A stretch of 64,000 nucleotides of DNA, from assembly GCA_001770205.1 (NCBI GenBank), contig MEQL01000007.1, forward strand, positions 62,001 through 126,000, read 5' to 3'. Source of the DNA: Bdellovibrionales bacterium RIFOXYD12_FULL_39_22. Lineage in GTDB: Bacteria; Bdellovibrionota; Bacteriovoracia; Bacteriovoracales; Bacteriovoracaceae. A program made the translations under genes and the position numbers. Under the pieces are notes generated by a model. That model was not told the DNA's origin. It saw only the letters and a list, made by a program, of their open reading frames with translations, and did not search any database. Shown here in pieces: positions 12,936 to 45,989 of the stretch. The number at the start of each line of letters is the position of its first letter. Within the stretch, counting starts at the first letter, position 1.

Positions 12936-13190
12936 GGTTGATTCCCAGTAAAGGAAATAGGGTGTATGTTTTTTATTTTTAGATAAAGCATAGATGGATA
13001 AATGTCAACGTGTTTGTTGAGTAATCAAAATTTGCTCTCGATCACAAGTATCTGATTGAGTTTGACAAAACTTAATATACGTTTTAGTTGTAACTTTGCC
13101 TGAATTCTAAAACATTGCGAGGTCACCATAAAGGCAGTTAGCGTTGCAGAAACTGACCATATATCGTCTGTTTTTTATTACTCATGTTTA

Positions 13191-25668: not shown

Positions 25669-26058
25669 CTAACGAAATAATTGGTGCATGTACCGGTTGA
25701 TTAAAGATTTAACATGTACAAGCTTGTTGCGGAGCACTTTTACTGGTGCTTTAACTTTCATACTTTTATGTAGAGTTCCGATTTTGTGAGGATTGATTAC
25801 AACGGTGTTTGACTCTGACCACAGGTTGTTTATCAATAGACGCTGAAAGGTCTCTTGGTTGGGGATATCTAAAAATGAATGGAACTTCCACAGTATGGTT
25901 CTATAAATCAACCGACTGTTAAATGGTGAAAAGTATTCGTGAGCAAAAACTTGCTTTCCGTCTCTTAGTTTTACGCTATTTCAATTTAGAAATTCATTCG
26001 TTTTTGCGATGAAAAATTGGCGCATGTACAATAGATTATGGTCGACGTTGTTCTTCAT
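25669..26058 (-). pseudogene. Small gene interrupted by an in-frame TGA (unknown product)
   Basis: GAGGA RBS and ATG 26058 overlapping the upstream gene end; 25 codons, TGA at 25981-25983, then ~103 more open codons to TAG at 25669. Confidence 0.45.
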
Positions 26059-29244: not shown

Positions 29245-30356
29245 AAGCGATATTTTATCATCCCGCAGAACTTTGCCCCAGGCCCTCAGGTAGTGGAATT
29301 CGTCCACATAAGATGATCCTTGAATTACAAAAAGCGTGTGAGAATGTCTATGTTGTCGCTGGTAATTCTAAAGAACGGAAATTGAAAGTTCGGGAAATTA
29401 AAAAAAATATAAACCTGGGGCTCAAAGTTGATTTCATCTATTTTGAAAATAAGTCGTCTCCTGTGACACTATCAATAATTAGATTGGTAGGTATTGCTTT
29501 TCCTTTCCCTTGTTTTTTTGATTTGTTCTTCTTGCTGTTTTGTGCCAGACGCGGAATAAAAATTGGCTACTATTTTAGAGATATTCATTGGGACTTTGGT
29601 TATATTTACGAAGGCGTCGTGGGATGGTTCGGAGTAATTTTATTGAAGATGTTTGGAAGATTAGAGCTTATGTTTCTCAAAAAATTTATCAAACATATAT
29701 TTGTTCCAACAGGGGCCTTTGCCGAATATTTGCAAAATAAGTACAAAATTTTCTCTAGACCACTACCACCTGGATCAGATCTTGAATTGTGTCCTGCTAA
29801 AAATTATTCAAATAACAACCTTAGAATTGGATATGTCGGAGGTAGCGGGGCGCTTTATGACCCCCGCACACTATTTTCCGCGATGTCTTTGTTGCCGAAA
29901 AGTATCACTCTGAGTTATTGTACACGCAAAACGGAGTGGGAACTTGTGAAATCAAAATATCAACTGCCGCAAAACGTGAGGATTGTACATTTTTCTGGAA
30001 ACGAATTAATAGATTTTTACCGCAATTGTGATGTCACAATATATCCGCTTCCCCCGGCACGCGAATATTCTCGCATGGCATTTTCGTTTAAAATTCCGGA
30101 ATACCTTTGTGCCGGTAAGCCGGTTATCGTTTTTGATGGCACAGCTGTTTCCGATTTTATTATAAACAATAATCTTGGTTGGAGCGTCGGAGATAATGCG
30201 GTTGATTTAGCAAACCTTATGTTATTTCTGGCAAACGGCCATGACGAAATTTTGCGTAAAATAGATAATGTAATAAAGTTTCGACCACAACTTTCGTGGA
30301 CCAATACTGTGCGCACATTGTTTGAATATTTACAACTGGAGGCCTGTCAAGCATGA
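29241..30356 (+). CDS. GT-B (GT4-like) glycosyltransferase, paralog of 24572-25660
   Basis: SGSGIRP, YFRDIHW, LPPG, YVGG, FKIPEY..GKPVI; GTGA-coupled. Confidence 0.8.
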   Translation: MKAIFYHPAELCPRPSGSGIRPHKMILELQKACENVYVVAGNSKERKLKVREIKKNINLGLKVDFIYFENKSSPVTLSIIRLVGIAFPFPCFFDLFFLLFCARRGIKIGYYFRDIHWDFGYIYEGVVGWFGVILLKMFGRLELMFLKKFIKHIFVPTGAFAEYLQNKYKIFSRPLPPGSDLELCPAKNYSNNNLRIGYVGGSGALYDPRTLFSAMSLLPKSITLSYCTRKTEWELVKSKYQLPQNVRIVHFSGNELIDFYRNCDVTIYPLPPAREYSRMAFSFKIPEYLCAGKPVIVFDGTAVSDFIINNNLGWSVGDNAVDLANLMLFLANGHDEILRKIDNVIKFRPQLSWTNTVRTLFEYLQLEACQA

Positions 30357-32263
30357 AAGTATCGAAACGTATCAGGTCCAAGATTCGATCGCTAATGAGC
30401 CTTTTAATGGGGGGGCGAGATATTGTAGATGCGCTTACCTCGTTCTATCGGATGTATGCATACCAATACAAAAAACAGATTGGAATTCTTTTAGCAGGGG
30501 CAATTCTTTCTGGCGCCATAGAGATTATGGGCCTTCTTTTGCTCTACATTCTCCTGCGGTTTCTTATTAACATTAACTCATTCGACGATTCACACATAGT
30601 TATTCGCACACTAAACTCGTTTGGTATTGCTAACAGAAATCACATGGCCGCGATTATCGGAATGGCAATAACGGTTACTTTCGTCGCCAAAAACATCTAC
30701 ATAATATTCTATTATCATACACAGCATCTAACGCTTAGGCGTTGGAAGATAGATTTAGGAAAAAGGCTAATGGAGGGCTATATGGCCGCTCCGTATCAAA
30801 TCATGTTGGGATACAACAGCTCAACAATTATAAGAAACGTGAACAATATTGTGGCCCAGGCCCTGAACGGATTTGTTCTTTCTGGTTTTAACTTCTTTTC
30901 TAATATGATTGTAGGTCTAATTTTGCTCAGTATCCTTTATGTGAAATACTTTACTATCACACTAATAACTGCTTCAACTTTAGTGGTCTCAACGATACTT
31001 CAAAATAAATTCATCAAAAAGAAGACAGCTGATCTGGGGAGAGAGCGCGACAAGCTGATGGTGGAACAAAACAAGAGCGTGTATCAAGGACTACACTCAT
31101 TAAAGGAAACTAAAGTTTTATTGAGAGAAAACTTTTTTTTAAAGAACTTTGAGACAATCAACAATTTGACCGTGGATAACGATACTACCGCAATGTTGTA
31201 TGCGAGGCTGCCTAGCCACATAACGGAAGTTGTTATTATTATCTCTATCGTGATGATTTCTGTTGTCGTCTTGTTTGAAAATTCCCATGACTCTAGTCTA
31301 TCGGTTGCCTCTCTTGGAATTCTCGCGGCCGTTGCATTTAGAATTGCTCCTATTATGAATCGTACTACCGCAGCATTGCAAGGATTGAGCAATAATCTTA
31401 ACAGCATGAAGACATTGTTTGCAGAATTTCAAAAACTAAAAGATTACAAATTGCTTAATTTGGATCGCAAGAATATCAACGCCCTCCCCTTTAATTCAAC
31501 GATAAAATTACAAAAAGTCAATTACAGATACCCTAAGGCCAGATCAAGGGCACTGGCGGATATCAACTTGGCCATTAATCGTGGAGAGGTAATGGGTGTA
31601 GTCGGAGAGTCAGGTGCTGGCAAGACCACCTTGATTGATTTAATTCTAGGACTTATTGCCCCGACAGAGGGGAATCTTTCCATTGATAATGTATTGATCA
31701 CAGAGAGTAATACAAAAAACTGGCAAAAAAATGTCTGCTACGTTCCTCAAGCAGTATACCTGAGTGATGCGTCTATTCGATCAAACATTGCTTTCGGAGT
31801 CCCCGATAACGAAATTGACGATGGCCGAATTGTGGAAGTGCTAAAGGATGTTGATCTGTATGATCATGTTATGGCCCTTGATGGTGGAATAGCATTTGCG
31901 GTAGGCGAAAATGGAAAAAACTTATCGGGAGGCCAGAAACAGCGTGTTGGTATCGCTCGGGCGCTATATCTTGATGCAGACGTTATTGTACTCGATGAAG
32001 CAACAGCGGCATTAGATGTGGGCACGGAATACAAGATCACCGAAACAATCAAAAAAATTAAAAATAAAAAGACGATCATTGTTATAGCACATCGTCTATC
32101 GACGATTTATGAAGCAGATCGGGTAGTTTTTATGAAAGATGCGAAGGTTGTCGATGTTGGTACTTTCAGTGAATTAGTCGGGCGTAATCCTGCTTTTGAA
32201 GACATGGCGATCAAATCACGGCTTGTTACAAATGATGTTGCGTCACAGGCAGAGATTGTCTAA
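30353..32263 (+). CDS. ABC transporter, fused TMD+NBD, PglK/Wzk-like lipid-linked glycan flippase
   Basis: TM N-terminal half; GESGAGKTT, LSGGQKQRVGIARALY, VLDEATAALD, IAHRLSTI; glycan-locus context. Confidence 0.88.
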   Translation: MKVSKRIRSKIRSLMSLLMGGRDIVDALTSFYRMYAYQYKKQIGILLAGAILSGAIEIMGLLLLYILLRFLININSFDDSHIVIRTLNSFGIANRNHMAAIIGMAITVTFVAKNIYIIFYYHTQHLTLRRWKIDLGKRLMEGYMAAPYQIMLGYNSSTIIRNVNNIVAQALNGFVLSGFNFFSNMIVGLILLSILYVKYFTITLITASTLVVSTILQNKFIKKKTADLGRERDKLMVEQNKSVYQGLHSLKETKVLLRENFFLKNFETINNLTVDNDTTAMLYARLPSHITEVVIIISIVMISVVVLFENSHDSSLSVASLGILAAVAFRIAPIMNRTTAALQGLSNNLNSMKTLFAEFQKLKDYKLLNLDRKNINALPFNSTIKLQKVNYRYPKARSRALADINLAINRGEVMGVVGESGAGKTTLIDLILGLIAPTEGNLSIDNVLITESNTKNWQKNVCYVPQAVYLSDASIRSNIAFGVPDNEIDDGRIVEVLKDVDLYDHVMALDGGIAFAVGENGKNLSGGQKQRVGIARALYLDADVIVLDEATAALDVGTEYKITETIKKIKNKKTIIVIAHRLSTIYEADRVVFMKDAKVVDVGTFSELVGRNPAFEDMAIKSRLVTNDVASQAEIV

Positions 32264-32419: not shown

Positions 32420-33784
32420 ATGATGGCAACTTATTCAGAAATCGAAGGCCGTTGTCTTGAGTTTAAAGAGAAGTTAACTACCTATCAGCAACTTTACAAA
32501 ACGGTTGTGGCGTTTGCCAACGATGTGGGTGGAAAAATCATAATAGGGGTTCAGGATAAAGATAGAAAAATAATTGGTGTAAATGAGCACGACCTCGATC
32601 GCTATTTGGAAGAAATTCCGCGGGCCATCTATGAGGCGATTACCCCCGCTTTGCAACCGGCCATGGCCGTCAAGCTTATGTCTGGAAAGCAGCTTTTGGA
32701 GATCGAAGTTTTTCCTGGAAACAAAAAACCATATTTTATAAAATCCAAAGGCCTTCCGGCGGGAGTATACATTAGAATTGGTTCGCATAGTGTTCCGGCC
32801 TCTGCAGACATCTTGGAAGATCTTCAACGTATGGCCGGCAGTGAAAATTTTGACAGCGGCCTAGCACCAGGAGTTACAGTACAAGAACTTGATCCTCTGG
32901 CACTGAAGTCGTATTACGGAAAGCATTATTCTCAAGAGCGGTTAGTCTCAGATAAGATTATTATCCGTGACCCCTTTTCTGGAAAGCTGGCCATTTCATT
33001 TGCCGGGGTGCTTTTTTTTCATCCGCATCCAGAGAAAATTTTTCCTCAATGTGAAATACTATTCACCAAGTTTGCCACAACAGATACAAAAAAAATTTCT
33101 CGGAGCATTGACTTTCACGGCCCTTTAATTTCGTTGGTAGATGAGGTTCTGACAGAAGTGCAATCTCATTTGGCCCGCGACTTTAAATTAAAGGGGGCCA
33201 GGCTGTCGGCCCAAAATCATATAATACCAGAAGAGGCCTTGCGTGAATCACTGATGAATGCGGTGATCCATCGAAAATACTATTTGAGCGATGCCATTAA
33301 AATAGCACTATTTTCTGATCGCTTGGAAATATTTAGTCCTGGAAATTTTCCTGGCCCCATTGTAGATTTGCGCAGTGGCGTCTCCTATTCTAGAAATTCA
33401 CTCATCCGCCAAATTGCACGTAATGCTGGACTTGTCGAAAAAAGAGGATTGGGTCTGATTAAAATTTTGGACACTTGTCAACATAATGGTAATCCCCCTC
33501 CAGATATCTATGAAGGTGAAGGAGATTTTGTAAAAGTAGTCTTTTATTTGGATCAAAACAAAAAAATAAAAGAGCAGTCAATCGTTGATTATAATTCCTG
33601 GCCCACGGGCCTTGTGTTACTACGAGAGTGGCATCAAGAAAAGAGGGCGTTCACACTCAAAGAGCTAGCAGCATTGTTGCAGTGTTCTCGAAACACGGCA
33701 AAAAGTAAAATTGAGTTTTTGCTAACGAAGAAATTTTTGTATTTAAAAGGTGCGGGCCCGAGTACTCGCTACGAATGGCAGTAG
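32420..33784 (+). CDS. AlbA_2 (Schlafen-like) domain + RecG-C/HATPase_c_4 domain + C-terminal HTH protein
   Basis: EGRCLEFKE, AFANDVGGKIIIGV, ALRESLMNAVIHRKY, DRLEIFSPG, SRNSLI, VEKRGLG, HTH ending G.GPSTRY. Confidence 0.85.
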   Translation: MMATYSEIEGRCLEFKEKLTTYQQLYKTVVAFANDVGGKIIIGVQDKDRKIIGVNEHDLDRYLEEIPRAIYEAITPALQPAMAVKLMSGKQLLEIEVFPGNKKPYFIKSKGLPAGVYIRIGSHSVPASADILEDLQRMAGSENFDSGLAPGVTVQELDPLALKSYYGKHYSQERLVSDKIIIRDPFSGKLAISFAGVLFFHPHPEKIFPQCEILFTKFATTDTKKISRSIDFHGPLISLVDEVLTEVQSHLARDFKLKGARLSAQNHIIPEEALRESLMNAVIHRKYYLSDAIKIALFSDRLEIFSPGNFPGPIVDLRSGVSYSRNSLIRQIARNAGLVEKRGLGLIKILDTCQHNGNPPPDIYEGEGDFVKVVFYLDQNKKIKEQSIVDYNSWPTGLVLLREWHQEKRAFTLKELAALLQCSRNTAKSKIEFLLTKKFLYLKGAGPSTRYEWQ

Positions 33785-33799
33785 TTTTAGTACCAGTGA

Positions 33800-34906
33800 C
33801 TATTTGAATTTTGCAATAGTTTCTAGGTAGGCCCGGGCCATGCTATCTATAGAAGCACTCCATGTATAGTTGGAAAGAACATGTTTGCGTCCGTTTATCC
33901 CCATCATGTTTCTTAGTGTCTCATCTCTAATTAATTTTGTTATTGCTGCCGATGCTTCTACCTGGTCATCTGTTTTGACAATAATTCCCGTAACGTTATC
34001 AATTGTGACTTCTGCCGGCCCATCGGCGTTTGAAACCACTACAGCTTTTTGACAGGCCGACGCTTCTAATATAGCAACGCCAAAACTCTCTTTGCGCGAA
34101 AGTGCGACGAAGAGATCCATTTGATTGATCACACTAGGAACTTGCTCATGTGGAATTTTTCCAAGGAAGGTGGTGTGATCTGATATACCAAGTCGTGCTG
34201 CTAAATCGAGCAGGTCTTTTTTTTGCGGGCCATCGCCTGCAATTAATAATTTTAAATTGTAATCTTGCTGAAGACTATTTTGGGCCTTAGCAAAAGCATG
34301 TAGCAAAGTATCAATTCCGTATTTATGTTCGAGCGTTTTTACCGTTCCAATTGTTAGATTTTTATTTGGTGTGTTCACATTTGACTGTGGTGCAAACAAT
34401 TTTTCGTCGATCCCAAAAGGAGTTATAAAAACCAAGTCGTGGGCAAAAGTTTTTGCCATCTCTTTTGCCATAGCATTACTTGTTGAAGCAATAGCAGTTG
34501 CATTTTTTAAGTTCCCTTTCAAAAACCATTTATGGACAGATGATTTATTGGGGAAATCGTAGATATCACTTCCCCAAACGGATAGAAGTAGTGGTTTAAA
34601 ACGACAGAGTCTTGCCAACAAACCATATCCGGTGGCGTAGTGAGCATTAAGAATATCTGGACGTAGCATTTTGAGAAGAGACCTTAAACTGATAGCGGAG
34701 GAAAAATATCCAAAGGGGGCATAAAAAGGAAGTATATGAATTTGTACTTTCGCATCATACTGATTGGGCAGCGGAGGAGGAGGGTGGCAGCTGATAACAT
34801 GCACATCGATACCGTTGGCCGCTAGCCCATTGGCCCATCTACAAGTATGTATTGATTGTGCGTTAGCAAGAAGAGCTACCTTCATTTGCATATTCCGGTT
34901 AGTCAA
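33800..34906 (-). CDS. GT4 glycosyltransferase
   Basis: SIHTCRW, PDILNAHY, SVWGSD, PFGID, ESFGVAILEASAC, VTG. Confidence 0.92.
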   Translation of the reverse strand: MTNRNMQMKVALLANAQSIHTCRWANGLAANGIDVHVISCHPPPPLPNQYDAKVQIHILPFYAPFGYFSSAISLRSLLKMLRPDILNAHYATGYGLLARLCRFKPLLLSVWGSDIYDFPNKSSVHKWFLKGNLKNATAIASTSNAMAKEMAKTFAHDLVFITPFGIDEKLFAPQSNVNTPNKNLTIGTVKTLEHKYGIDTLLHAFAKAQNSLQQDYNLKLLIAGDGPQKKDLLDLAARLGISDHTTFLGKIPHEQVPSVINQMDLFVALSRKESFGVAILEASACQKAVVVSNADGPAEVTIDNVTGIIVKTDDQVEASAAITKLIRDETLRNMMGINGRKHVLSNYTWSASIDSMARAYLETIAKFK

Positions 34907-35867
34907 AATTTTTGATGCAGTCGACGATATTGTCGGCGTGAATGTAATAATCTTTTTCTAGCACTCGATTGGCCGGCGCCGGAAGATCTGGTAGGGCCAG
35001 TCGGCGGGCACGGGTGGATGGAGCATGTTCTAAAACTTGCGCCAAGATTTCTGCGGCAACTCCAAAGCTGGCCCAGGTACCATCTACCACGATAATTTTT
35101 TTAGTCTTTCTCGCAGAGGCAAGGATTGTACTACTATCAAGAGGCTTAATAGATCTTAGGTCAATGACCTCGGCATTGATGGCATAGGTGTTTTGCAATA
35201 TTTGGGCGGCCTTCAGTGATTCTTGAACTAAATAGGAGCTAGCGACAATCGTCAGATCTGTTCCTTCTCTTGCGATATGGGCCTTGCCAATGGGTGTTTC
35301 AAAAATTTCTTCAGGAACCTCATCTTCAATCCCATACAACCATCGATCATCAATGAATACTACCGGATTAGGATCTTTGATTGCCGCAACCATTAAACCC
35401 TTGGCATCGCGGGCAGTCGCTGGCATGACCACCTTGAGTCCTGGCACATGAGCAAACATGGCCTGTAGTGCTTGGGAGTGCTGAGCGGCCTGCTCACCGC
35501 CACGATTTATGATCCCCCAAAACACAACGGGTACCGGGAGTGCCCCACCATTCATATAACTCCAGTTGGCCGCTTGATTAATTATTGGATCAAAAGCATA
35601 GAGCATAAAATCCACCCGAGGATGCACCGAAATAGCTGGATGGCCGGCGATGGCCGCCCCGACGGCCGCACCGGTCATAGCATTTTCAGAAACAGGTGTG
35701 TCAATAACTCGATCATCTCCAAAAAGCTCAATCAAATCTTTACAAGTGTTCCCTACATACCATGGACTTTTAACTCCTTGGCCGATTAGAATAACGCGTT
35801 CGTCTGCTTGCATGGCCTGCTTTAATGCTTCGTTGATAGCAAGACCGAATTTAAGTTTTCTGGCCAT
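34899..35867 (-). CDS. TPP-dependent 2-oxoacid dehydrogenase E1 beta-like subunit
   Basis: RVIDTPVSEN, DPIINQAA, AAQHSQ, PGLKVV.P, DPNPVVF, EVIDLRSIKPLD. Confidence 0.92.
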   Translation of the reverse strand: MARKLKFGLAINEALKQAMQADERVILIGQGVKSPWYVGNTCKDLIELFGDDRVIDTPVSENAMTGAAVGAAIAGHPAISVHPRVDFMLYAFDPIINQAANWSYMNGGALPVPVVFWGIINRGGEQAAQHSQALQAMFAHVPGLKVVMPATARDAKGLMVAAIKDPNPVVFIDDRWLYGIEDEVPEEIFETPIGKAHIAREGTDLTIVASSYLVQESLKAAQILQNTYAINAEVIDLRSIKPLDSSTILASARKTKKIIVVDGTWASFGVAAEILAQVLEHAPSTRARRLALPDLPAPANRVLEKDYYIHADNIVDCIKNFD

Positions 35868-36840
35868 AAAAAAGGTCCTTGTGCAGATCGTTTCGAGAGG
35901 TATTCAGCAAGGCGACAGCTTTTTGGTGAATGCCTTCAATTTCTTTTTTGAATTTTAGTTGCACCACTTCCATTTCGGAGGCAGTTAAAAGTTTATGGGA
36001 AATTAGATAGGATTCGAATAATTTTATGGGATCTCTTTTCAACCAGCGCTCAATTTCGTCTAGTGGCCGGATATCAGTATGAGTTCCTTGAATATTATCA
36101 TCCGGGCCTACATGGCCTCGCTGCCGATAGGTTTTACATTCGATAAAGGCCGGGCCTTGGCCTTCGCGTGCTGCCAAGCTTGCTTCCAGAGCACACTCGC
36201 GAACTGCAAGTACATCGTTTCCATCAATAACATATGATTTCACATTAAAGGCGTCGGCCAGTTTAGAAATTTCTCTCGTAGGCCTTATCTCATCAATTCG
36301 CATATGGGTGGAGTATAAATTATTTTCGCAGACAAAAACTATTGGAAGTTTTTTGAGAGAGGCAAAATTAAGAGATTCTGCAAGGACTCCCTCTCCGGTG
36401 GCCCCATCTCCAAAATATGAAACTGCTATTTGTTTTTTATGATTATTTTTTGCTGCTAATGCCGCGCCAAGAGCAAGTGAAATAGTTCCTGAGACGATGG
36501 GGGCGGCACCCAACATTCCAACTTCTGGTGCGATGATGTGCATTGATCCGCCTTTTCCCTTGCAACATCCTTCTGATAAACAATAAATCTCCATGATCAT
36601 GCGTTCGAGAGATCCGCCCTTGGCCAAATAGTGCCCATGCGAGCGGTGATTTCCGAAGACGTAATCTTGTTTGCCTAACGTAGAACTGATTCCGACGGCA
36701 ATGGCCTCTTGGCCTGAACACATATGCACTGGACAGCGAATAATTCCTTGGAGAATTGGTTCAACAAAACTCTCTTCGGCGAATCTGATTTTTATTAATT
36801 CCGAGTATAGGTGAGCGGCCAGCTCTTTGGGCATTTGCAC
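35851..36840 (-). CDS. TPP-dependent 2-oxoacid dehydrogenase E1 alpha-like subunit
   Basis: HMCSGQEA, HRSHGHYLAKG, GKGGSMH, TPP motif GDGA...ENN, DGND, TYRQRGH, DPI. Confidence 0.92.
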   Translation of the reverse strand: MQMPKELAAHLYSELIKIRFAEESFVEPILQGIIRCPVHMCSGQEAIAVGISSTLGKQDYVFGNHRSHGHYLAKGGSLERMIMEIYCLSEGCCKGKGGSMHIIAPEVGMLGAAPIVSGTISLALGAALAAKNNHKKQIAVSYFGDGATGEGVLAESLNFASLKKLPIVFVCENNLYSTHMRIDEIRPTREISKLADAFNVKSYVIDGNDVLAVRECALEASLAAREGQGPAFIECKTYRQRGHVGPDDNIQGTHTDIRPLDEIERWLKRDPIKLFESYLISHKLLTASEMEVVQLKFKKEIEGIHQKAVALLNTSRNDLHKDLFYGQKT

Positions 36841-36905
36841 TTTACATTTTCTCCGCGCTGTGAGTAGAATCGCCCCAAGATAAGTTAGTTTGTATTATTT
36901 GACAA
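36841..36905. promoter_or_regulatory. Interlocked divergent sigma70-like promoters
   Basis: + strand TTTACA (36841-36846), 18 nt, TAGAAT (36865-36870); - strand TTGTCA (36905-36900), 17 nt, TATCTT (36882-36877). Confidence 0.45.
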
Positions 36906-38596
36906 TAAGGCATTGCTTGAAAGCTTGGTTTTCCTCAGACAAGATTGCGGCTTGGTTACCTTTTTTAATGCTTTTCTTAGTTTTTCCGCTCGCCCTCACT
37001 CTACACAACCAAGAAGAGTTATCCCATCCACTGGGGCACTATCTTGTCATCTATTTTTCTTTCGCCATTGTCTCTTACTTGTTGTTGGTGCTTTTGTTGC
37101 GATATCTTTTGCCCACCTCAAGCAAAGAGCTGATTTCTGTTTTAATGTTTCTTTTGGGGATGTTCATTTTAATCTCAGATATTGTTGCTCCGCTGCGACT
37201 GGATAGCTTTGATGATTTGTCAGGAATTGGCAAAATAAAGGTTCTTCCGCTCGATTTTATTTTTGAGTTTTTTGTGGGGATTGCGTTGTTATTTTGTCTG
37301 CGAGTAAAACGAGATTGGTTATTTAAGATTGGATCAATAATTACGATCTACTTTTTTGTTTCACAAGTGGCGGTTTGGGCCCACGCGGTATCAACTAAGG
37401 ATGATGCACCAGAAAATAAAGATCTGGCCCAACAATTAAAAGGAAATACTACCGTTGAGTCTAAAGGAAATATATACCACTTCATTTTTGATACATATGG
37501 CCCAGGTTTTTTAGAACATCTTTCAGCAATAAAAGGGGCGCAGGAAAGTTTTAATGGTTTTGTTTATTTTAAAAAAAATCTAACCAATTCTGATTATACC
37601 CAAATTTCGGTTCCGATAATTTGGAGCGGACATACTTTTTTGGATTCAGACCTTTCCATTTCTGCTTGGAGACAGACAGGGTTTATGTCTCAGGGCCCAC
37701 TGGTTGATTTTCATAAAAGTGGTTACACTATTTATGAGTACCAAACTAAATATCGTCACCGCCTGGCCGATCATACGGTGCATGGCAACGATCTAAAAGC
37801 CAAAATTTTTGAAATAGGAGATGATGAATTCGGCCCGTGGAATATAATGGATTTGTCTATATTGCGGGCCGCACCTACTTTTTTACAAAACTACATTTTC
37901 TATAAGGGCGATGGACCACTCTCCAATCTGAGATTTGCCTTCGCCAAAACAAAAAAACTGTCTGGGAATTTTGTGAGGGCCCCATTAGCAGTTGCGGTGC
38001 TACAAAAATTTCTAGCAGAAGAACCCTCAAGATCAAATAGTGGCAATTATGTGCTTGCCCATATATCTTTGCCGCATGACCCATATGTAGTGACAAGAAA
38101 ATGTACTACAAATTTTACCGCCACCACATATGATGATCAGGCCATTTGTGCTGTTCGATTTATGGTTGAGATTATTAAGACACTAAAAGCGGAGGGCCGT
38201 TATGAGGACTCAACTATTATTTTTCAAGGTGACCATGGCCCTGTATTAAGTAAGAGAGAACGCAAGCAAAAAGGTATCGTTTTTTTAAAAGGCCCAAAGA
38301 CATTACTTCTGATAAAACCACCCAATAGCAGTGACTTACCAATGGAGATCTCTGAAATTCAGTCCCAGTCATTGGATATTGCCCCCACTCTATACGCCTT
38401 GACAGGCGTTTCGCATGATCAAAAGATGGAATTAGCTGGAGAAAATCTATTTTCTAATCATGTTAATAAGTCGCGAGAGATACATATTTACTCTTATAGG
38501 CGGCCATATAATAATCGCACGGAAGAGCTAATGCATTGGAGTTTTGTTGACGGGATAGGATTTAAGAAGTATCAAAATATACTTCCAAAAATGTAA
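36890..38596 (+). CDS. Membrane-anchored alkaline-phosphatase/sulfatase-fold transferase
   Basis: ~5 TM helices, [21 protein letters not shown] (Thr), [22 protein letters not shown]. Confidence 0.78.
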
Positions 38597-38619
38597 AAAA
38601 ATTAATAGGAGAAGCTTAT

Positions 38620-39927
38620 ATGACGAAGACAGTTTATGTGGGAATGAGTGCAGATTTGATCCATCCTGGACATTTAAATATTATCAATAACGCAGTTAAG
38701 TATGGCGAGGTTATCGTTGGAGTTTTAACAGATGAGGCAATTGCCAGTTATAAGCGTCTTCCATATATGAATTTTGAGCAACGCAAACTTGTAGTAGAAG
38801 GGTTACGTGGAGTTACTAAAGTTGTTGCGCAAGAGAGTCTAGATTATGTGCCTAATTTGGAAAAAATTAAACCTAACTTTGTTGTTCATGGTGACGATTG
38901 GAAAACAGGAATTCAGAGCGAAACAAGACAGCGAGTTATTGATACGCTGGCCAAGTGGGGGGGGCAGTTGATTGAGATTCCGTATACAGATGGTATTTCG
39001 TCTACGGCCCTAATCAAAGCATTAAAAGAGATTGGAACTACTCCTGAAATTCGTCAAAATAGATTAAGAAGACTGTTATCGGCCAAAAAATCTGTGCGGA
39101 TGATGGAGGCACACAATGGATTGACGGGTTTGATTGTAGAAAATGCCAAGATTACAAAAAATAATACAACCGTAGAGTTTGATGGAATGTGGTTGTCGAG
39201 TTTAACGGAATCTACTGTACGTGGAAGGCCAGATATTGAGGCGGTAGATTTTTCATCAAGGATGACTACCTTAAATGATATTTTAGAGGTTACCACGAAG
39301 CCAATTATTTTTGATGGAGACACTGGTGGAAAAAATGTTGAGAATTTTGTCTTTATGGTCAAGACGATGGAGAGATTGGGGGTATCGGCAGTAATCATAG
39401 AGGATAAGGTTGGATTAAAGCAAAACTCTCTTTTTGGTACAAGTGTTCAGCAAACCCAGGCCACCCCAGAGGAGTTTGCACGAAAAATTCGGGCCGGGAA
39501 AAAGGCGCAAGTTGGCCACGCTTTTATGGTTATTGCCCGAATTGAAAGTTTAATTGCCGGGGCCGGAGTGGCCGATGCAATTTTACGCGCAAAAACATAT
39601 ATTGAAGCAGGTGCCGATGGGATTATGATCCATAGCGCCAAAAAGGATCCTAAGGAAATTTTTGATTTTTGTGATGCATATAAAAAATTGGAAAAGGTTG
39701 TTCCGCTGGTAGTAGTTCCGTCTAGCTTTAATTCAGTATATGAGAAAGATTTGGCCGAACGAGGTGTTAATATCGTTATATATGCTAATCAATTACTTCG
39801 AGGAGCATATCCTGCGATGATGCGTGTAGCTAATACTATATTGGAAAATGAGCGTGCTTTGGAGTGCGATGATACCATAATGCCAATTAAAGAGATCCTA
39901 ACGCTGATTCCTAATGCGGAAGCTTAG
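38620..39927 (+). CDS. pepM: Phosphoenolpyruvate mutase with N-terminal cytidylyltransferase domain
   Basis: HPGH (HxGH), VVHGDDW, ISST in the N-domain; EAHNGL, DGDTG and the diagnostic EDKxxxxxNS ([10 protein letters not shown]); [19 protein letters not shown]. Confidence 0.96.
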
Positions 39928-41611
39928 TTTTATCAACCTCTTTCCAGTTAAGAAGAGGAGTTCCCTCTCGCACTGTTTCTATTATTCTTCCGTGCTTTGC
40001 CGAGGCATAGGATATGTTTGGGGCCATTGTTGATAACAGATCTGGTTGTTGTGCCAATTCAGAAAAAAGATATTTGAAAATATTAACATTACTTAATATC
40101 GAGATCTCTCTTATTTGTTGGCCTGCTGGGCGAGGCCATCGAATTGCACAAAAAACACCGAACATATCTTCTGTGATAAGTTGTTCATCAACGCCATGTT
40201 GATTCATTTCCTTTCTCATTTTATCAATAGAGAGGTTTCTGGAAGGAAGGCCTCGATACCTAAATGAACCATGATCTCCCAGCGCAATGATTACGGCGGA
40301 ATTATCCTTGTCAATAATATGAGTAACGAGATCAAGAAGTTCATCTTCTGCATGTCTGTAAATTTTTCTATATTCTTCGATCCAATAATCCAAGTAGATC
40401 CATGGCCGTTCTTTGGTATCAGCGCTATCGGTAATTTTAACGCCTATATCGCGAAGTTTTTTTGCCGAATATTTGACGGAGTGAGCTGCTCCGGCCTTAA
40501 TGAAATAAAAGGTTGGTCTTTCATTGCTTGCATCATCAATGCGTTTTTTAATTTTATTAATGAATTCATCCTTGGCCAGTGAAACGCTAGGTCTGTTTTC
40601 CCAAAAAAAGTAGTAGATTTTTTTTAGTAATTTACTGCGAAACAAAGAGATGGCCGCAGTGGCCTCATTTTTTCCAAAAAAAGTAAAATCAATCTGCTGC
40701 CCGGGATGATCATTTAATAGATCATGACTATTTTGTAATAGATAGTCTACTTGGTAGCCGTTATGCTTAAAGATGGTTAAAGTTGGATTGAATCTATTTC
40801 CTCCAATTATGCTGCGAGCAAATGAATTATCAGAAATACCAGTTTCTCCACGGTTGTAGTGATGATCCATAAGAAAAATGGAAAGGAGACTACTAAGAGT
40901 AGACTCATAATTAGAATATGTATTGTCGTATATCGAAAAGTCTAGCCCGGAAAGTTTATTCACCATCGAGGAGTTATCATAGTTGTAGATTTTTTTTACA
41001 GCATAAGCTGAATGAAATGATTCTAGTAAAATAAAATAAACATTAGGGCGTGTTACAAATTTCAATTTACCATACTGCTTAATTTTTCTTGAGTCTATCT
41101 GAGCACTTTTTTCTTCGCTGCGTAAGGTGCTGGCCCGCCCACCCCATTGAATAATGGCACTGATTAGCATTGATGCCAGAATGATATTTAAGAACATGAA
41201 TCGCGCTTTATAAACTATCATTCCGACAAATAATGGAAGGCCTAGATAAATAAGATTCTTCTCTAAAGTGCTATCGTTGTAAGAAATATTTGCCTTAAAA
41301 AGATAGAGAATCGTTGCAACACCAAGCGCCGCCACCGTGAGATCCATTACTCGTTTTTTTAAAACAGAGGGAAGGTGGGAGGCGGCCAGTATTATATGAG
41401 TCACTAAAATGATTATGGAGTTGCTAACAAGAAATAAAATAATAAGAAAGAAGAGCGTCCGTAGAATTTGTTCTGAAGTAAACATGTGATAGTTGATCTG
41501 CAAGACACCAATAATCGGATAAACGGTGGCCAGTATTATAAACAAATGCGCCTGGCCAAGGGCAGAAAGTATATTTTTGGAGGTAAAAAGCATATTTAAA
41601 TTGTAGGCCAT
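39911..41611 (-). CDS. Membrane-anchored alkaline-phosphatase/sulfatase-fold transferase, close paralog of 22947-24575
   Basis: [47 protein letters not shown] shared with the paralog; 3' end overlaps pepM by 17 nt. Confidence 0.78.
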
Positions 41612-41644
41612 GAAGAATAAATTTCTATGTTGTCACATAAGAAT

Positions 41645-41836
41645 TTATTTTTTCTCGGAGAATATGCGCTGGAAAGTTTCTTTAATCTTTCCCCAGTAAA
41701 CTTTGCCGGCAACTATAGACCCGACGACAGCTCCAACAACTGCTTGCATAACAATGGACATTGATCCAGGGTCTATATACGCGTTGGCAGTGCCGATAAA
41801 TGGAACAAGAATTATAATTAGAAGTAGTATTCTCAT
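41645..41836 (-). CDS. Small membrane protein with an AYIDPGS motif (63 aa)
   Basis: AGGAG RBS before ATG 41836; signal-like MRILLLIIILVPFIGTANA, then YIDPGS, a TM helix and a basic tail. Confidence 0.7.
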   Translation of the reverse strand: MRILLLIIILVPFIGTANAYIDPGSMSIVMQAVVGAVVGSIVAGKVYWGKIKETFQRIFSEKK

Positions 41837-41925: not shown

Positions 41926-42516
41926 ATGAGCAAAGTCTTATTTGACTATTTTGTAGCAGTTGTTGCCTTGTTTTTTTTACTTCCAATTTTTTTGGTGATC
42001 GCCATTGTCATAAAGTTGACATCGTCTGGGCCAATTTTTTATCGTGGAGAGCGGACGGGCCAACATGGTGTATCGTTTAAAATTTTTAAGTTTCGTACGA
42101 TGGTTGTTAACGCTGAGAAATTAGGTGGGCCAACGACGGGACTAAATGATCCGAGAGTGACAAAAATCGGTCATTTTTTGCGGAAATATAAACTAGATGA
42201 ACTTCCCCAACTTATTAATATAGTTAGAGGAGAAATGAGTTTCGTTGGGCCACGGCCTGAAGTAAAACGCTATACGGATCTGTTTTTAGGGGATGAGAAG
42301 TTGATTTTGACTGTTAGGCCAGGAATCACCGATTATAGTTCAATCAAATTTGCGGATCTTGATTACCAAGTAGGTGCAGAAAATATAGATCAAAACTTTG
42401 AGGCCAAAATTTTACCAGAAAAAAATAAGTTGCGTATAAAATATGTCAAAGAACAATCTTTCTGGCTTGATTTAAAACTGATTTTTTTGACGATCTTGCG
42501 AGTTATAAAAAAATGA
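41926..42516 (+). CDS. Priming phosphoglycosyltransferase (Bac_transf, PglC/WbaP-like)
   Basis: GPIFY..ER.G, KFRTM, DPRVT, LDELPQL.N, MSFVGPRP, RPGIT. Confidence 0.95.
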   Translation: MSKVLFDYFVAVVALFFLLPIFLVIAIVIKLTSSGPIFYRGERTGQHGVSFKIFKFRTMVVNAEKLGGPTTGLNDPRVTKIGHFLRKYKLDELPQLINIVRGEMSFVGPRPEVKRYTDLFLGDEKLILTVRPGITDYSSIKFADLDYQVGAENIDQNFEAKILPEKNKLRIKYVKEQSFWLDLKLIFLTILRVIKK

Positions 42517-43427
42517 GATATTTGTCGCTTGATAATCACAAATTTTGTCCTTCTTGTTTGGGATTAGGCTGTCTGGCATTTGGTGGGTATGGGGTCGGTT
42601 TTGTTGATGATCAAAAATTAGAACAGACTTTTTTTAAAGCAATCGACAGTGGGATAAATTTTTTTGATACCGCAGATATATACGGCCTTGGTCGAGCGGA
42701 ACTATTTTTAGGAAAGCTTATTTCTAAAACGGCCGGGTTGCGCTCGAAATTGCTTTTGGCCTCAAAATTTGGTGTTCGTCGTTCTGATATTGGCGAGATT
42801 TTTTATGATAATTCTATTGATTGGATAGAACAGGCGTTGATGGCCAGTCTTGAGCGCCTGCAAACAGATTATCTCGATCTATATCAATTGCATTACCCTG
42901 ATAACAAAACTCCCATTGAAGAGGTTATGAATTTTTTGGATAAAAAACGGCAAGAGGGAGTGATTAGGTATTTTGGTGTTTCAAATGTCAGTGATAACGG
43001 AGTTCTTTCGGAACTTGCCAAAAAATATCCATATTTTATTACTGCGCAAATGGAAGGTAGTCTGATTCATAATCCAAATACTGCCAATTTTCCAGAACAG
43101 ATTGCGCCAATTTTTTATGGGGTATTAGCGCAAGGCCTACTGTCTGGGAAGTATGACAAAGATAGTAAGTTTGCAGAAAACGACGCCAGAAGTCGGCCCA
43201 AATATGTTAATTTTCACGGAGAAAAATTGGCGCAAAATTTAGAAGTAGTTGAGCGACTTAAAGTATTTGCAAAGAAATATGGGATGACTCCAACTCAAAT
43301 GGCATTTCGTTGGGTTCTAGATCATTATCCAAGGGCCGTGGCCTTGATTGGAGCAAAGGATCAAGAACAACTTATCGAGGCCCTTGAGAGTTGTAGCTGC
43401 GTCTCTCAAATAGATTGGACTATATGA
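42513..43427 (+). CDS. Aldo/keto reductase
   Basis: GINFFDTADIYG, ASKFG, SLERLQTDYLDLYQLHYPD, GVSN, LAQGLLSGK; ATGA-coupled on both sides. Confidence 0.92.
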   Translation: MRYLSLDNHKFCPSCLGLGCLAFGGYGVGFVDDQKLEQTFFKAIDSGINFFDTADIYGLGRAELFLGKLISKTAGLRSKLLLASKFGVRRSDIGEIFYDNSIDWIEQALMASLERLQTDYLDLYQLHYPDNKTPIEEVMNFLDKKRQEGVIRYFGVSNVSDNGVLSELAKKYPYFITAQMEGSLIHNPNTANFPEQIAPIFYGVLAQGLLSGKYDKDSKFAENDARSRPKYVNFHGEKLAQNLEVVERLKVFAKKYGMTPTQMAFRWVLDHYPRAVALIGAKDQEQLIEALESCSCVSQIDWTI

Positions 43428-44692
43428 GAATATGGCTAATTAAGGCCGGAGAGCCATTTCCTCTTTCATCATCAGCTCGTTTATTCCGAACTGGTATGAT
43501 GGCCAACATTTTAATTGAGCGAGGCCATCATGTCGTTTGGTGGACTACGGCCTATGATCACTTTGAGAAAAAATACATTGCAGACAAATTTACGATTCAT
43601 CGGTTACAAAATAATTATGAGCTGGCCATTCTCTATCCTACGACGCCATATAGAAAAAACATTTCATTAGCGAGAATAAAAAATCATCAAGAATTAGCGC
43701 AGACATTTGTCAGAGAGATTAATTCGTTTCCCCTTCCAGATATTATTGTGTGCTCTTATCCCATTATTGAGTTGGCCGAGGAGGCAATTAGGTTTGGTCA
43801 GCGGCATAACATCCCGGTGGTGGTGGATATTAGAGATTTATGGCCAGATGTTTTTTTAGAGGTCTTGCCGCGTTACCTTAATTTTTTAGGACGGCCGTTT
43901 TTATATTTTTTAAACCAGAAGGCACAATATGTATTTGATAACGCCGAAACGATTATTGGTTTAACAGATGAATTTTTACAATGGGCCTATAAAAAATCTA
44001 ATCGAAAGCAATTAAAGAAACATATTAACGATTTTGTTGTTCCTATGGGATATTCAGATGTCATTCCGGATGCAGGGGACGTGATAAATGCTGACCAGTT
44101 TTGGGAAAAACAAGGAGTGGTGAAAACTAATTTTAATATCTGCTTTTTTGGTGCACTAGGAAAACAATTTGATATGAAGACGGTGATTGAAGCGGCAAAA
44201 AGGATGCAAAATAGAAATGATAGAAATGATAGGATCAAGTTCATTATCTGCGGGGATGGAGAGTCTTTAGCATTATATAAAGAGCAGGCAAGTGATTTAT
44301 CTAATGTGTTATTTACTGGGCGAGTGGACAAAGTAAAAATTTATTCATTAATGAGACGATCAAGTATCGGATTAGCGCCATATAAAAATAGTTTTGACTT
44401 TAGGGCCAGTATTGGCAATAAACCGGCCGAATATTTTTCCGCGGGCCTTCCTATTATTTCCGCAGTCGACGGCGTGTTAGGTAGACATCTTCGTCAATAT
44501 AATTGTGGCCTGATTTATTCTTCCGGAGATCCTAGTGATTTAGTAGATAAAATTATGGAGCTATATAACAATCGTTCGAAGTGTGAGAAGATGAGTTCCA
44601 ATGCGCAGGCCTTGTATGCAGAGAAGTTTATTGCTAAAAAAGTTTATACAGAATTTGCAAAAAAACTGGAGGCCATCTCCAATAGGTATTGA
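43424..44692 (+). CDS. GT4 glycosyltransferase
   Basis: ERGHHV, PDIIVCS, VVDIRDLWPD, ICGDG, NKPAEYFSAGLPII. Confidence 0.88.
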   Translation: MRIWLIKAGEPFPLSSSARLFRTGMMANILIERGHHVVWWTTAYDHFEKKYIADKFTIHRLQNNYELAILYPTTPYRKNISLARIKNHQELAQTFVREINSFPLPDIIVCSYPIIELAEEAIRFGQRHNIPVVVDIRDLWPDVFLEVLPRYLNFLGRPFLYFLNQKAQYVFDNAETIIGLTDEFLQWAYKKSNRKQLKKHINDFVVPMGYSDVIPDAGDVINADQFWEKQGVVKTNFNICFFGALGKQFDMKTVIEAAKRMQNRNDRNDRIKFIICGDGESLALYKEQASDLSNVLFTGRVDKVKIYSLMRRSSIGLAPYKNSFDFRASIGNKPAEYFSAGLPIISAVDGVLGRHLRQYNCGLIYSSGDPSDLVDKIMELYNNRSKCEKMSSNAQALYAEKFIAKKVYTEFAKKLEAISNRY

Positions 44693-44738
44693 TGGTTATT
44701 CTTACAATTCCTATGTTTTATATGCTGGAGTTATGGAT

Positions 44739-45989
44739 ATGGAAAATCGGATTATTCAATTTATAGGGAAGACAACATACTTGGCATTTTTACTGCTGGC
44801 AGCGCTGCTATTTATTGCCTTTGCCTTAAGTTCGCTTCATCACATTTTTCTTATTCCTCCGGCCTTATATTTTTTATATTTGTCCGCCAAAAAAGGTGAG
44901 TTGCGTCAGCAGTTTTGTCAGTCTAGGGCAGAGTTATTTCTGCTATTATTGGTTATTACCGCCCTGATTTCGATTGTGATCAACATTGATATGATTAAAG
45001 CGCCTCTAAAAAACATATTAAAGCTTAAATATTTTATTATTCCCTTGCTCGCTATTCCTGCCCTTAAATATACCTTCAGGACTTATATTACAGAGCGAAA
45101 AATCAAAATTTTGGCCAATACATTTTTAATTTCCATTACGGTGGCCACGGTAGCTGGGATGATTGGAATGAAGACCGGATTTAATCCGCTTAAGTGGGCA
45201 ACGGTAAAAACCGCTCGCAATGCTGGGATGTATGGCATGGTGATGAGCTACGCTTATGGACTTAGTATGATATTGCCGGCAATGTTGGCGACGATTGTTG
45301 CCTTGAGAAATAAGAATAATCGTTATCTTACTAACTATGTAAGTGAAAAACTTCTATGGGGAGCAACAATTGTTAATTTGCTCGGCCTATATTTTTCTTA
45401 TACGCGGGGGGCAATGTTGGGAATGATTGCTGCTTTACCGTTTGTTTTTTTCTTTGCGCGCAGGAAAATATTTTGGGCCATGATGGCCATGGCCGGAGTT
45501 GTTTTCTCTGTGATAATTGTTATTACATTCAGCGGTACAAACATTAATTACTATCGTTTAAATGCGGCCAAAAGTAATTTTTTGCGAATGAGTATCTATA
45601 AGGTTGTGGTAAAAATGGCCGAAGAAAAACCACTTCTAGGAGTAGGATTTCGCAATGTTGAACGGCAAGTAAAAGAATTTCGTAATAAATATCAAATGCA
45701 AGATTCTAAGTTTGTTGGCCATGCACACAATAACTATCTTGAGTTTCTAGGAGGGACGGGGATTATTGGGTTCACCTTTTTTGCCCTATTTTTGTTTTCC
45801 TGGATGCAGATGCTATTGGTTAGCAATAATATTTGGCCTGCACAAATATTACTTCCGTTTATGATCAGTTTTTTAACTTCGGGACTTTTTCAGAGTACTA
45901 TCATTGATGGTGAAAATACCTATCTTGTAATGGCCTTGTTCATGTTAAGTCTGATGCGGTGCTCAGAAAAGGTACGACGAACCTCATAA
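44739..45989 (+). CDS. O-antigen ligase family (Wzy_C) membrane protein
   Basis: Many TM helices, SYTRGA, R..IY, PLLGVG, HAHNNYLE; GGAG RBS before ATG 44739. Confidence 0.85.
   Translation: MENRIIQFIGKTTYLAFLLLAALLFIAFALSSLHHIFLIPPALYFLYLSAKKGELRQQFCQSRAELFLLLLVITALISIVINIDMIKAPLKNILKLKYFIIPLLAIPALKYTFRTYITERKIKILANTFLISITVATVAGMIGMKTGFNPLKWATVKTARNAGMYGMVMSYAYGLSMILPAMLATIVALRNKNNRYLTNYVSEKLLWGATIVNLLGLYFSYTRGAMLGMIAALPFVFFFARRKIFWAMMAMAGVVFSVIIVITFSGTNINYYRLNAAKSNFLRMSIYKVVVKMAEEKPLLGVGFRNVERQVKEFRNKYQMQDSKFVGHAHNNYLEFLGGTGIIGFTFFALFLFSWMQMLLVSNNIWPAQILLPFMISFLTSGLFQSTIIDGENTYLVMALFMLSLMRCSEKVRRTS

Follow-up and report, generated by a model that had tools for sequence, protein, structure and literature searches.

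A phosphonate gene between membrane alkaline-phosphatase-fold genes in a Bdellovibrionales glycan locus: candidate machinery for 2-hydroxyethylphosphonate decoration of a surface glycan

How a phosphonate made within the cell might be placed on a surface glycan is the question raised by a locus of Bdellovibrionales bacterium RIFOXYD12_FULL_39_22. The later steps of phosphonyl tailoring were called enigmatic in 2019 (PMC6697681). The DNA analysed, referred to here as the window, is a stretch of 64,000 nucleotides (contig MEQL01000007.1, positions 62,001 to 126,000), in which a gene for a cytidylyltransferase fused to a phosphoenolpyruvate mutase (CT-PepM) lies between the genes of two membrane proteins with an alkaline-phosphatase (AP) fold. 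Coordinates were based on the listing of the open reading frames (ORFs) of the window and on Pfam and NCBIfam family scans, the stretch 409-48616 being covered on Pfam. An original prediction had proposed that a phosphonate head group is made, loaded on a lipid and transferred outside the cytoplasm onto the glycan by the AP-fold proteins. On balance, our results incline slightly towards the reading that the window holds half of a system for decorating a surface glycan with 2-hydroxyethylphosphonate (HEP), the glycan being supplied by the surrounding 3.7-46 kb locus. What the analysis shows is the identity of the genes, the folds and conserved residues of their products, and a gene set that recurs in other bacteria.

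The fusion protein P0004 (435 aa) is encoded at 38620-39927 on the plus strand. It scored 389.5 bits against the phosphoenolpyruvate (PEP) mutase model TIGR02320, passing the curated equivalog cut-off of 319.55, and matched PF13714 (PEP_mutase, 5.5e-56) and PF01467 (CTP_transf_like, 1.6e-14). The cytidylyltransferase (CT) domain covered approximately residues 4-138, with HPGH at residues 15-18 (38662-38673), and the PepM domain covered approximately residues 145-433, with the EDKxxxxxNS motif, [10 protein letters not shown], at residues 261-270 (39400-39429). Both motifs, including E261, D262, K263, N269 and S270, were invariant across nine CT-PepM sequences. These results confirmed the earlier claim of a pepM with an intact EDKxxxxxNS motif fused to an HxGH cytidylyltransferase. 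The N-terminal domain aligned with PDB 5x3d_A over 135 residues (4-138) with an E value of 3.2e-56, and the PepM domain matched 1m1b (E 3.5e-41). We take 5x3d to be the HEP cytidylyltransferase domain of Fom1. In the part of PMC6697681 that deals with these enzymes, EDKxxxxxNS is the criterion dividing Ppm from the other members of the isocitrate-lyase superfamily, and Fom1 is described as forming the cytidine monophosphate (CMP) conjugate of HEP, CMP-HEP. The same part gives PF01467 as present in 23.6% of Ppm proteins, so that the CT-PepM fusion belongs to a common and known type and is not new. By its domains and motifs, P0004 is a predicted bifunctional cytidylyltransferase-PEP mutase of the Fom1-like kind.

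The genes expected to act between PepM and the CT domain were found elsewhere in the genome. The phosphonopyruvate decarboxylase (Ppd) was absent from the window and present on another contig of the same genome (G000:C55:29325-30386), with about 453 bits against the TIGR03297 cut-off of 312.5. It was followed consecutively by the genes of an iron-containing alcohol dehydrogenase (Fe-ADH), which carried the Pfam Fe-ADH domains and had the phosphonate-type TIGR03405 as its top family, and of a 378-aa TagF-like protein, P0006. The latter passed the cut-off of PF04464 (29.8 against 22.1 bits); H119 and H228-P229 were invariant in 18 sequences of its family, and the TagF-like profile matched TarL (8va1, E 1.6e-8) with the invariant His-Pro (RxHP) aligned to the HPF of TarL. 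Since this run of three genes lies about 30 kb inside a 76.5-kb contig and is flanked by unrelated genes, the phosphonate cassette is really split. No 2-aminoethylphosphonate (AEP) transaminase over the cut-off was found in the genome, which is 94.6% complete, with the one model searched (best TIGR03301 score 52.9 against 360.8 bits).

HEP was taken as the head group because Ppd, Fe-ADH and the TagF-like protein were present and no AEP transaminase reached the cut-off; for the same reasons, AEP was not supported as the product. The activated head group is most likely CMP-HEP, as judged from the gene content, and the TagF-like enzyme is its probable user. The original prediction had described a phosphonate analogue of phosphoethanolamine (pEtN) or Gro-P decoration; HEP, and not an AEP/pEtN analogue, is the likelier head group. 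Its route kept the PepM and the CMP-activating domain, both of which proved real, and overlooked the TagF-like enzyme, which alters the route. Its link to the phosphonosphingolipids of Bacteriovorax stolpii does not apply, the cluster of that organism being of the AEP-transaminase type in the relevant part of PMC8942020.

The first of the two flanking membrane proteins, P0001 (568 aa, TTG start), is encoded at 36890-38596 on the plus strand, and a gap of 23 nt (38597-38619) separates its gene from the downstream CT-PepM gene. Its start codon is not certain, and in the database the protein has 559 aa. The second, P0002 (566 aa), is encoded at 39911-41611 on the minus strand, convergent with the CT-PepM gene and sharing 17 nt with its 3' end. 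The gene of a further protein, P0003 (22929-24575, plus strand, first ATG at 22947), belongs to the same glycan locus, where its neighbours on the two sides encode a DegT aminotransferase and a GT1-like protein. All these positions were as originally reported, the ATG at 22947 included, and the protein starting there had been regarded as a third copy. P0002 and P0003 were 42% identical (BLASTP E 1e-139) and are paralogues of one family, named famB here. P0001, the member of the family named famA, had no BLASTP similarity to P0002 or P0003, and the comparison of the famA and famB profiles (hhalign 98.7%, E 2.4e-16, 391 columns) covered both the transmembrane (TM) region and the catalytic domain. 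The three are accordingly not copies of one gene: the gene at 22947 is a paralogue of that of P0002, P0001 is related at the profile level only, and famA and famB are, on this profile evidence, two remotely related families.

Family models recognised these proteins poorly. P0001 barely exceeded the cut-off of PF00884 (25.1 against 25 bits) with its C-terminal part only, and P0002 and P0003 had no Pfam or NCBIfam match; PF00884 was reached by several relatives. A word-based homologue search with P0002 returned two matches only, both of them proteins of the same genome. The exhaustive profile search with famB returned 2622 relatives at E<=1e-3, of which 127 also passed E<=1e-30, and the Atlas places famB in 'Sulfatase domain' clusters, including one '60Kd inner membrane protein/Sulfatase' cluster. 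famB is a real family, large and unnamed. A fourth gene for an AP-fold TM protein, belonging to famB (E 1.2e-33), was observed at G000:C54:24848-26425 on the minus strand (L038:8849-10426), adjoining genes for a multihaem cytochrome c and a trypsin-like protease and outside any glycan or phosphonate context.

Structural analysis of the AlphaFold2 (AF2) models, together with DSSP helices (21-170) and hydropathy, showed that P0001 and P0002 each consist of five N-terminal helices followed by an alpha/beta domain of the AP superfamily. The model of P0002 had a pLDDT of 91, and that of P0001 was weaker (70.8). The top Foldseek matches of P0002, at about 1e-8, were PbgA, MCR-1, EptC, LtaS and sulfatases; the VIA Z scores were 21.9 for YejM, 20.0 for LtaP, 19.8 for EptC, 19.5 for LtaS and about 19 for sulfatases, only rows less than 1 Z apart being treated as ties. 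P0001 matched sulfatases, MCR-1, PbgA and LtaS in Foldseek, and full-length structure alignments of the models of the flanking proteins were obtained with PbgA (6xlp) and MCR-1 (9nww). The prediction of flanking LtaS/EptA-like membrane proteins was upheld, and the conserved Thr and metal-ligand columns agreed with it.

Among the conserved residues of famB, D446 and H447 were invariant in 50 sequences and H377 was conserved. E197 was invariant in an 8-sequence subset, and in the 50 sequences it was the consensus but not among the columns conserved at >=90%. The famA residues D201, T237, H396 and D448-H449 formed invariant columns in 6 sequences and are candidate metal ligands and nucleophile. 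In the hhalign alignment, the pairs were D201/E197, T237/T238, H396/H377 and D448-H449/D446-H447 (famA/famB). T238 of famB was >=90% conserved and aligned with T237 of famA, about 40 residues past the first metal ligand, which is the spacing expected of a Thr nucleophile in LtaS/EptA-type transferases, in the famA-famB alignment only, and the GDHG region was aligned to the sulfatase metal site. The conserved columns of both families fit an AP-superfamily metal site with a candidate Thr nucleophile. Basic loops were found after TM2 (KKR) and after TM4 (KAR); these loop charges and the homologues point to an N-in topology with the catalytic domain outside the membrane.

Whether these proteins accompany PepM elsewhere was surveyed in 401 genomes of the phylum, with E<=1e-10 for famB and E<=1e-60 for PepM. 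famB was present in 12 genomes, PepM in 37 and the TagF-like family of P0006 in 13. famB and PepM occurred together in six genomes (G000, which is the genome of the window, and G324, G083, G090, G221 and G317), and in five of these six, four of them genomes other than its own, famB lay within 7 kb of CT-PepM. In G324, the genes for a TagF-like protein, a YidC-fused famB protein (849 aa), CT-PepM, Ppd and Fe-ADH formed a tight run of the same orientation, in which two of the junctions are overlaps and the others are gaps of 6 and 46 nt. Two famB genes, a TagF-like gene, an ADH gene and Ppd adjoined CT-PepM in G317; famB was divergent from a run of CT-PepM, Ppd, ADH and TagF-like genes in G083; and G221 had a YidC-famB fusion, a TagF-like gene, a CT-PepM-like gene and an ADH gene. 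Homologues of P0006 were present in 5/5 CT-PepM loci of relatives whose genomes carry famB, in contrast to 0/5 CT-PepM loci without famB.

famA as a partner of pepM inside the phylum was not upheld, and its link to pepM was regained only via the famA-like AP domains of YidC fusions in Bacteroidota. The strong famA matches lay 140 kb from pepM in G083, on other contigs in G090, and in genomes without PepM in G140 and G239. Since both families also occur in genomes without pepM, neither famA nor famB is phosphonate-specific as a family. The neighbourhood survey called for in the original prediction supported it in that famA and famB were tied to CT-PepM cassettes elsewhere; both were also found in PepM-less genomes. 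A separate observation concerns G083 (L028), in which two flagellin genes (2-622 and 13119-13952) enclose the HEP cassette together with famB and the gene of a 704-aa protein with a sulfatase domain; a flagellin glycan that carries a phosphonate is therefore conceivable in that genome.

The scan across phyla was made with the CT-PepM alignment and one genome per species, and the best 80 of at least 581 loci, ranked by similarity, were kept. They came from Ignavibacteria, Bacteroidales, Alteromonadaceae, Cloacimonadota, Gastranaerophilales, Stackebrandtia and others; many contigs were short, and the ORFs were scanned with purpose-built HMMs. Among these 80 loci, Ppd was present in 77 and Fe-ADH in 72, its place after Ppd being conserved. 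A TagF-like gene was found in 18 at E<=1e-10 (14 at E<=1e-50), and a YidC-like domain in 13, all with a strong TagF-like match. Matches to famA or famB were found in ten loci, all among the loci with a TagF-like gene (10/18 at E<=1e-10, in contrast to 0/62 without one), and usually in the next gene.

The usual operon order was CT-PepM, Ppd, ADH, TagF-like and then a membrane protein of 780-1015 aa. In all seven of these large proteins that were scanned on Pfam the N-terminal part was 60KD_IMP (YidC-like), and four of the seven also had PF00884. The AP parts of the fusions were famA-like in Bacteroidota (1e-21 to 1e-31) and famB-like in Cloacimonadota and in the window's own phylum; because the fusions elsewhere are famA-like or famB-like, the genes on either side of CT-PepM in the window are both members of families that partner the cassette. 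In PepM operons of several phyla, YidC-like domains fused to AP-fold proteins or encoded alone, directly beside TagF-like genes, were found in L069, L072, L080, L084, L098, L113, L119, L120, L125, L126 and L137, further YidC-AP fusions at L027:11350-13899 and L030:8155-10521, and a stand-alone YidC-like gene of 239 aa (7961-8680) ahead of the TagF-like gene in L104. To our knowledge, YidC-like domains have no described part in the transfer of head groups.

Genes of the P0006 family that have the gene of an AP-fold TM protein next to them or close by were found without PepM as well. In G039 (L041 5710-12315) and G130 (L057 8692-11951), the TagF-like gene stood beside an ATP-sulfurylase-like gene and a gene for a pyruvate-kinase barrel only, with famB adjacent in G039; this set may be another nucleotide-activated head-group module. 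In G187 (L055 3817-9465) and G339 (L058 9302-14894), it followed a trio of a PPDK-like protein (about 1000 aa), GATase-C26 and NTP_transf_3, and a sulfatase-type TM protein of 592 aa was encoded two genes beyond this run in G187. The trio is similar to Cj1418, Cj1417 and Cj1416, the genes for O-methyl-phosphoramidate in Campylobacter. In G140 and G320, the TagF-like gene was accompanied by a famA or famA-like gene. This recurrence argues that the TagF-like and AP-fold pair may be a general module for nucleotide-activated anionic head groups, and since the pair recurs with other activated head-group sets, it argues against AP-fold enzymes that simply use the bulk lipids phosphatidylethanolamine (PE) and phosphatidylglycerol (PG).

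Combining these findings, we infer HEP as the product, CMP-HEP as the donor of the TagF-like enzyme, a lipid-linked intermediate, periplasmic transfer and a glycan acceptor. In such a route, the PepM domain would convert PEP to phosphonopyruvate; Ppd and Fe-ADH, both encoded on C55, would convert phosphonopyruvate via phosphonoacetaldehyde to HEP; and the Fom1-like CT domain would activate HEP to CMP-HEP. The TagF-like P0006 would then transfer the phosphonyl group of CMP-HEP to a membrane-anchored acceptor at the cytoplasmic face. Outside the membrane, famA, famB and the famB paralogue at 22929 would act on the TagF-like product via a Thr-phosphonyl enzyme intermediate and pass HEP to glycan hydroxyls, by analogy with LtaS, GacH and EptA, and so complete or redistribute the decoration; several AP-fold paralogues would serve several acceptor sites. 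A wider version can be put forward only tentatively, and we regard it as doubtful: a three-part system in which the TagF-like enzyme loads an activated head group on a lipid carrier at the inner face, a dedicated YidC-like domain, in most lineages fused to the transferase, translocates it, and a Thr-type AP-fold enzyme transfers it to glycans or polymerises it, in the manner of LtaS, into poly(hydroxyethylphosphonate). In this version, the pair would also serve the phosphoramidate-like sets (G187, G339) and the ATP-sulfurylase/pyruvate-kinase-barrel sets (G039, G130).

Several results weigh against the HEP decoration reading. The phosphonate and its placement on a glycan are predicted here from genes alone. 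The cassette of this genome is divided over two contigs, its Fe-ADH (301.8 bits) fell under the TIGR03405 equivalog cut-off of 423.7, the AP-fold proteins of the window are without a YidC-like domain, and a dedicated YidC-like gene or domain was not found in the genome, the sole match being the housekeeping YidC. Six of the 12 famB genomes had no PepM match, and the strong famA matches in relatives never adjoined pepM. Because the TagF-like and AP-fold pair also stands beside other head-group genes, it is not phosphonate-specific. In the cross-phylum set, 62/80 CT-PepM loci had neither a TagF-like nor an AP-fold partner; the 80 were the top-ranked loci out of at least 581, and related genomes among them are not independent. 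Moreover, the TagF-like enzyme could finish the transfer in the cytoplasm, and the AP-fold step would then be unneeded. In a rival explanation, the route is cytoplasmic only, and the TagF-like enzyme moves HEP directly from CMP-HEP onto the lipid-linked glycan before export. The flanking AP-fold proteins would in that case be common pEtN or phosphoglycerol transferases (EptA/OpgB/GacH-like) fed by membrane phospholipids, which would be the reason for their place in the glycan locus. As members of their family, TagF/TarL-type enzymes transfer directly from CDP-activated donors; the AP-fold genes of this genome do not adjoin its TagF-like gene; and famA and famB occur in PepM-less genomes in plain glycan or lipopolysaccharide-core settings, for example beside GT2, GT9 and GT4 genes in G015. 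This explanation has difficulty with the confinement of the AP-fold matches to TagF-like loci among the 80 CT-PepM loci, with the place of famB in the G324 operon, where the TagF-like gene and CT-PepM enclose it, and with the recurrence of the pair in other nucleotide-activated head-group modules, which is hard to explain if the AP-fold proteins used only PE and PG. We consider it unlikely, though a rival to be taken seriously.

Two further explanations change the role of the AP-fold proteins or the product itself. Periplasmic hydrolases or non-catalytic PbgA-like partners that trim, recycle or sense a phosphonate polymer would account for the periplasmic domains of YejM/PbgA being the top VIA match, about 2 Z above LtaP, EptC and LtaS, and for the fold shared with phosphonate monoester hydrolases (4uph, Z 17.8; 4upk, E 3.3e-4 to P0001). 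The known phosphonate monoester hydrolases and sulfatases, however, are soluble formylglycine enzymes, whereas famA and famB have five TM helices and a Thr in the aligned position; the conserved metal-ligand and Thr columns argue for probable catalysis, and a hydrolase straight after the transferase in a biosynthetic operon would be less economical. Such a role is improbable in our view. If the product were instead a phosphonolipid, a membrane lipid carrying HEP or a different head group, the position of pepM in a glycan locus would be a coincidence. pepM clusters of the phosphonolipid type are common, and one CT-PepM locus of the phylum (L035) combines NTP_transf_3 with a CDP-alcohol phosphatidyltransferase. 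In the part of PMC8942020 that treats them, the Selenomonas clusters that contain several sulfatases are placed in 'Group 4 phosphonolipids'. Against this product, no CDP-alcohol phosphatidyltransferase was found in the scanned parts (409-48616 of the window on Pfam; 4093-15653 of L005 on NCBIfam, with Pfam for three L005 ORFs), pepM lies among glycosyltransferase, Bac_transf and Wzy_C genes, and the acceptors of TagF-like enzymes are a glycan or polyol; we hold it to be very improbable. Set beside these explanations, decoration of the surface glycan with HEP is the reading retained here.

The acceptor glycan is probably assembled by the genes at 41926-45989, all on the plus strand, which encode on Pfam evidence a Bac_transf initiating sugar-phosphate transferase (41926-42516), an aldo-keto reductase (42513-43427), a GT4 glycosyltransferase (43415-44692) and a protein of the Wzy_C/O-antigen-ligase type (44601-45989). 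The remainder of the large surface-polysaccharide locus (3781-33784, mixed strands) contains genes for a sugar dehydratase, epimerases, aminotransferases, GT2 and GT4 glycosyltransferases and methyltransferases, as well as an MsbA-type ABC exporter at 30353-32263 (Pfam). On the other side of famA, a divergent minus-strand operon (33800-36840) encodes a GT4 glycosyltransferase (33800-34906) and proteins similar to the beta (34899-35867) and alpha (35851-36840) subunits of pyruvate dehydrogenase E1, both of them recognised by Pfam and NCBIfam below the equivalog cut-off. The E1-like pair (34899-36840) is co-oriented with the GT4 gene and lies 49 nt from the famA start; it may carry out a thiamine diphosphate-dependent two-carbon branching or acyl-forming step on a sugar. 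Its role as an alternative phosphonopyruvate decarboxylase was rejected, a bona fide Ppd being present on C55. Pfam E1_dh and Transket_pyr (E1-type) gave no match at E<=1e-8 in the 57 and 36 ORFs scanned from 10 CT-PepM neighbourhoods (L027-L036), and the operon 33800-36840 is outside the conserved phosphonate cassette.

Some other features of the glycan locus were observed. No Pfam match was obtained for the ORFs at 26036-27781 (minus strand) and at 7741-10330, 13191-15137 and 18337-19986 (plus strand). Their products are soluble proteins of 581 aa (minus strand), 364 aa and 508 aa and polytopic membrane proteins of 648 and 549 aa; the latter two had about 11-14 hydrophobic segments by hydropathy and are possibly a polymerase or flippase. 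A protein with Schlafen AlbA_2 and HATPase_c_4 domains is encoded mid-locus at 32420-33784 on the plus strand, between the ABC exporter and the GT4 gene. At the edge of the locus are an AAA_14/DUF4143 gene (2566-3738) and a DDE_3 transposase gene (1043-1972), and an ORF of more than 1757 aa (58728-63998, plus strand) runs past the end of the window.

According to the part of PMC8931226 that treats them, no phosphonates are more abundant in the high-molecular-weight dissolved organic phosphorus of the sea than the polysaccharide esters of HEP and methylphosphonate. These marine esters feed aerobic methane production. HEP-type neighbourhoods and HEP-bearing exopolysaccharide are already known from PMC8942020, as far as its relevant part goes. 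The literature search, made in main texts, returned no paper that ties PepM to LtaS/EptA-type, TagF-like or YidC-like proteins and no work that names the transferases of phosphonyl tailoring. The cassette of CT-PepM, Ppd, ADH, TagF-like and YidC-AP-fold proteins offers concrete candidates for the missing transfer machinery, and it raises the possibilities of LtaS/EptA-type enzymes fed by a dedicated nucleotide-dependent loader in place of bulk phospholipids and of a YidC-like domain acting outside protein insertion. If the tentative three-part system were true, its members would be candidate makers of the HEP esters in marine high-molecular-weight dissolved organic phosphorus. For Bdellovibrionales bacterium RIFOXYD12_FULL_39_22 itself, the prediction is a phosphatase-resistant anionic decoration of the surface glycan.

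Among the known systems, the group of LtaS, GacH, EptA/MCR-1, EptC, OpgB and PbgA/YejM shares with the flanking proteins the five TM helices and an extracytoplasmic AP-fold domain (Z 19-22) with conserved acidic, Thr, His and Asp-His residues. The known LtaS/EptA-type members take their head groups from bulk phospholipids. The proteins described here differ from this group in their very low sequence similarity, in the genomic coupling to a TagF-like enzyme that depends on a nucleotide-activated donor, and in the YidC-like domain that is fused to most of their relatives. P0006 resembles TagF/TarL (PF04464) in exceeding the Pfam cut-off and in the invariant His-Pro aligned to TarL, but it is short (378 aa), is encoded with Ppd and ADH and not with a CDP-glycerol or CDP-ribitol synthase, and has CMP-HEP as its presumed donor. 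The Fom1 system, with the early HEP pathway of PepM, Ppd and PhpC/FomC, is similar in the N-terminal PF01467 CT domain fused to PepM and in the Ppd and Fe-ADH of the same genome. It differs in its tailoring genes, none of the Fom3/Fom4 type being found in the scanned parts of the two loci of this genome, in the surface-glycan setting found here, and in the role of CMP-HEP, a proposed transfer donor here and a transient biosynthetic intermediate there.

The Pnt pathway (Rice et al. 2019, PMC6697681), in the part of that paper describing it, likewise combines CMP activation of a phosphonate beside PepM with cell-surface tailoring, but its PntC belongs to the PF12804 type, with AEP as the preferred substrate, and the transferases proposed for it are LicD-like. 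Here, the CT domain is of the PF01467 type, the head group is probably HEP, and the fusion is accompanied by a GT-B enzyme of the TagF-like kind and by membrane proteins with the AP fold. The methylphosphonate-exopolysaccharide cluster of Nitrosopumilus maritimus, reported by Metcalf in 2012, is said to include sulfatase-family genes as well. Where genes of the sulfatase family lie close to pepM, phpC or mpnS, earlier authors have read them as hints that phosphonate esters are made (PMC9381506; PMC8942020). In the passages of these papers on such neighbourhoods, in marine genomes and in Selenomonas GCF 400, the genes appear as 'arylsulfatase A' or 'multiple sulfatases', and neither an architecture nor partners are given for them. 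In contrast, the proteins found here are predicted five-TM, Thr-type proteins of the AP fold, paired with a TagF-like enzyme and usually fused to a YidC-like domain.

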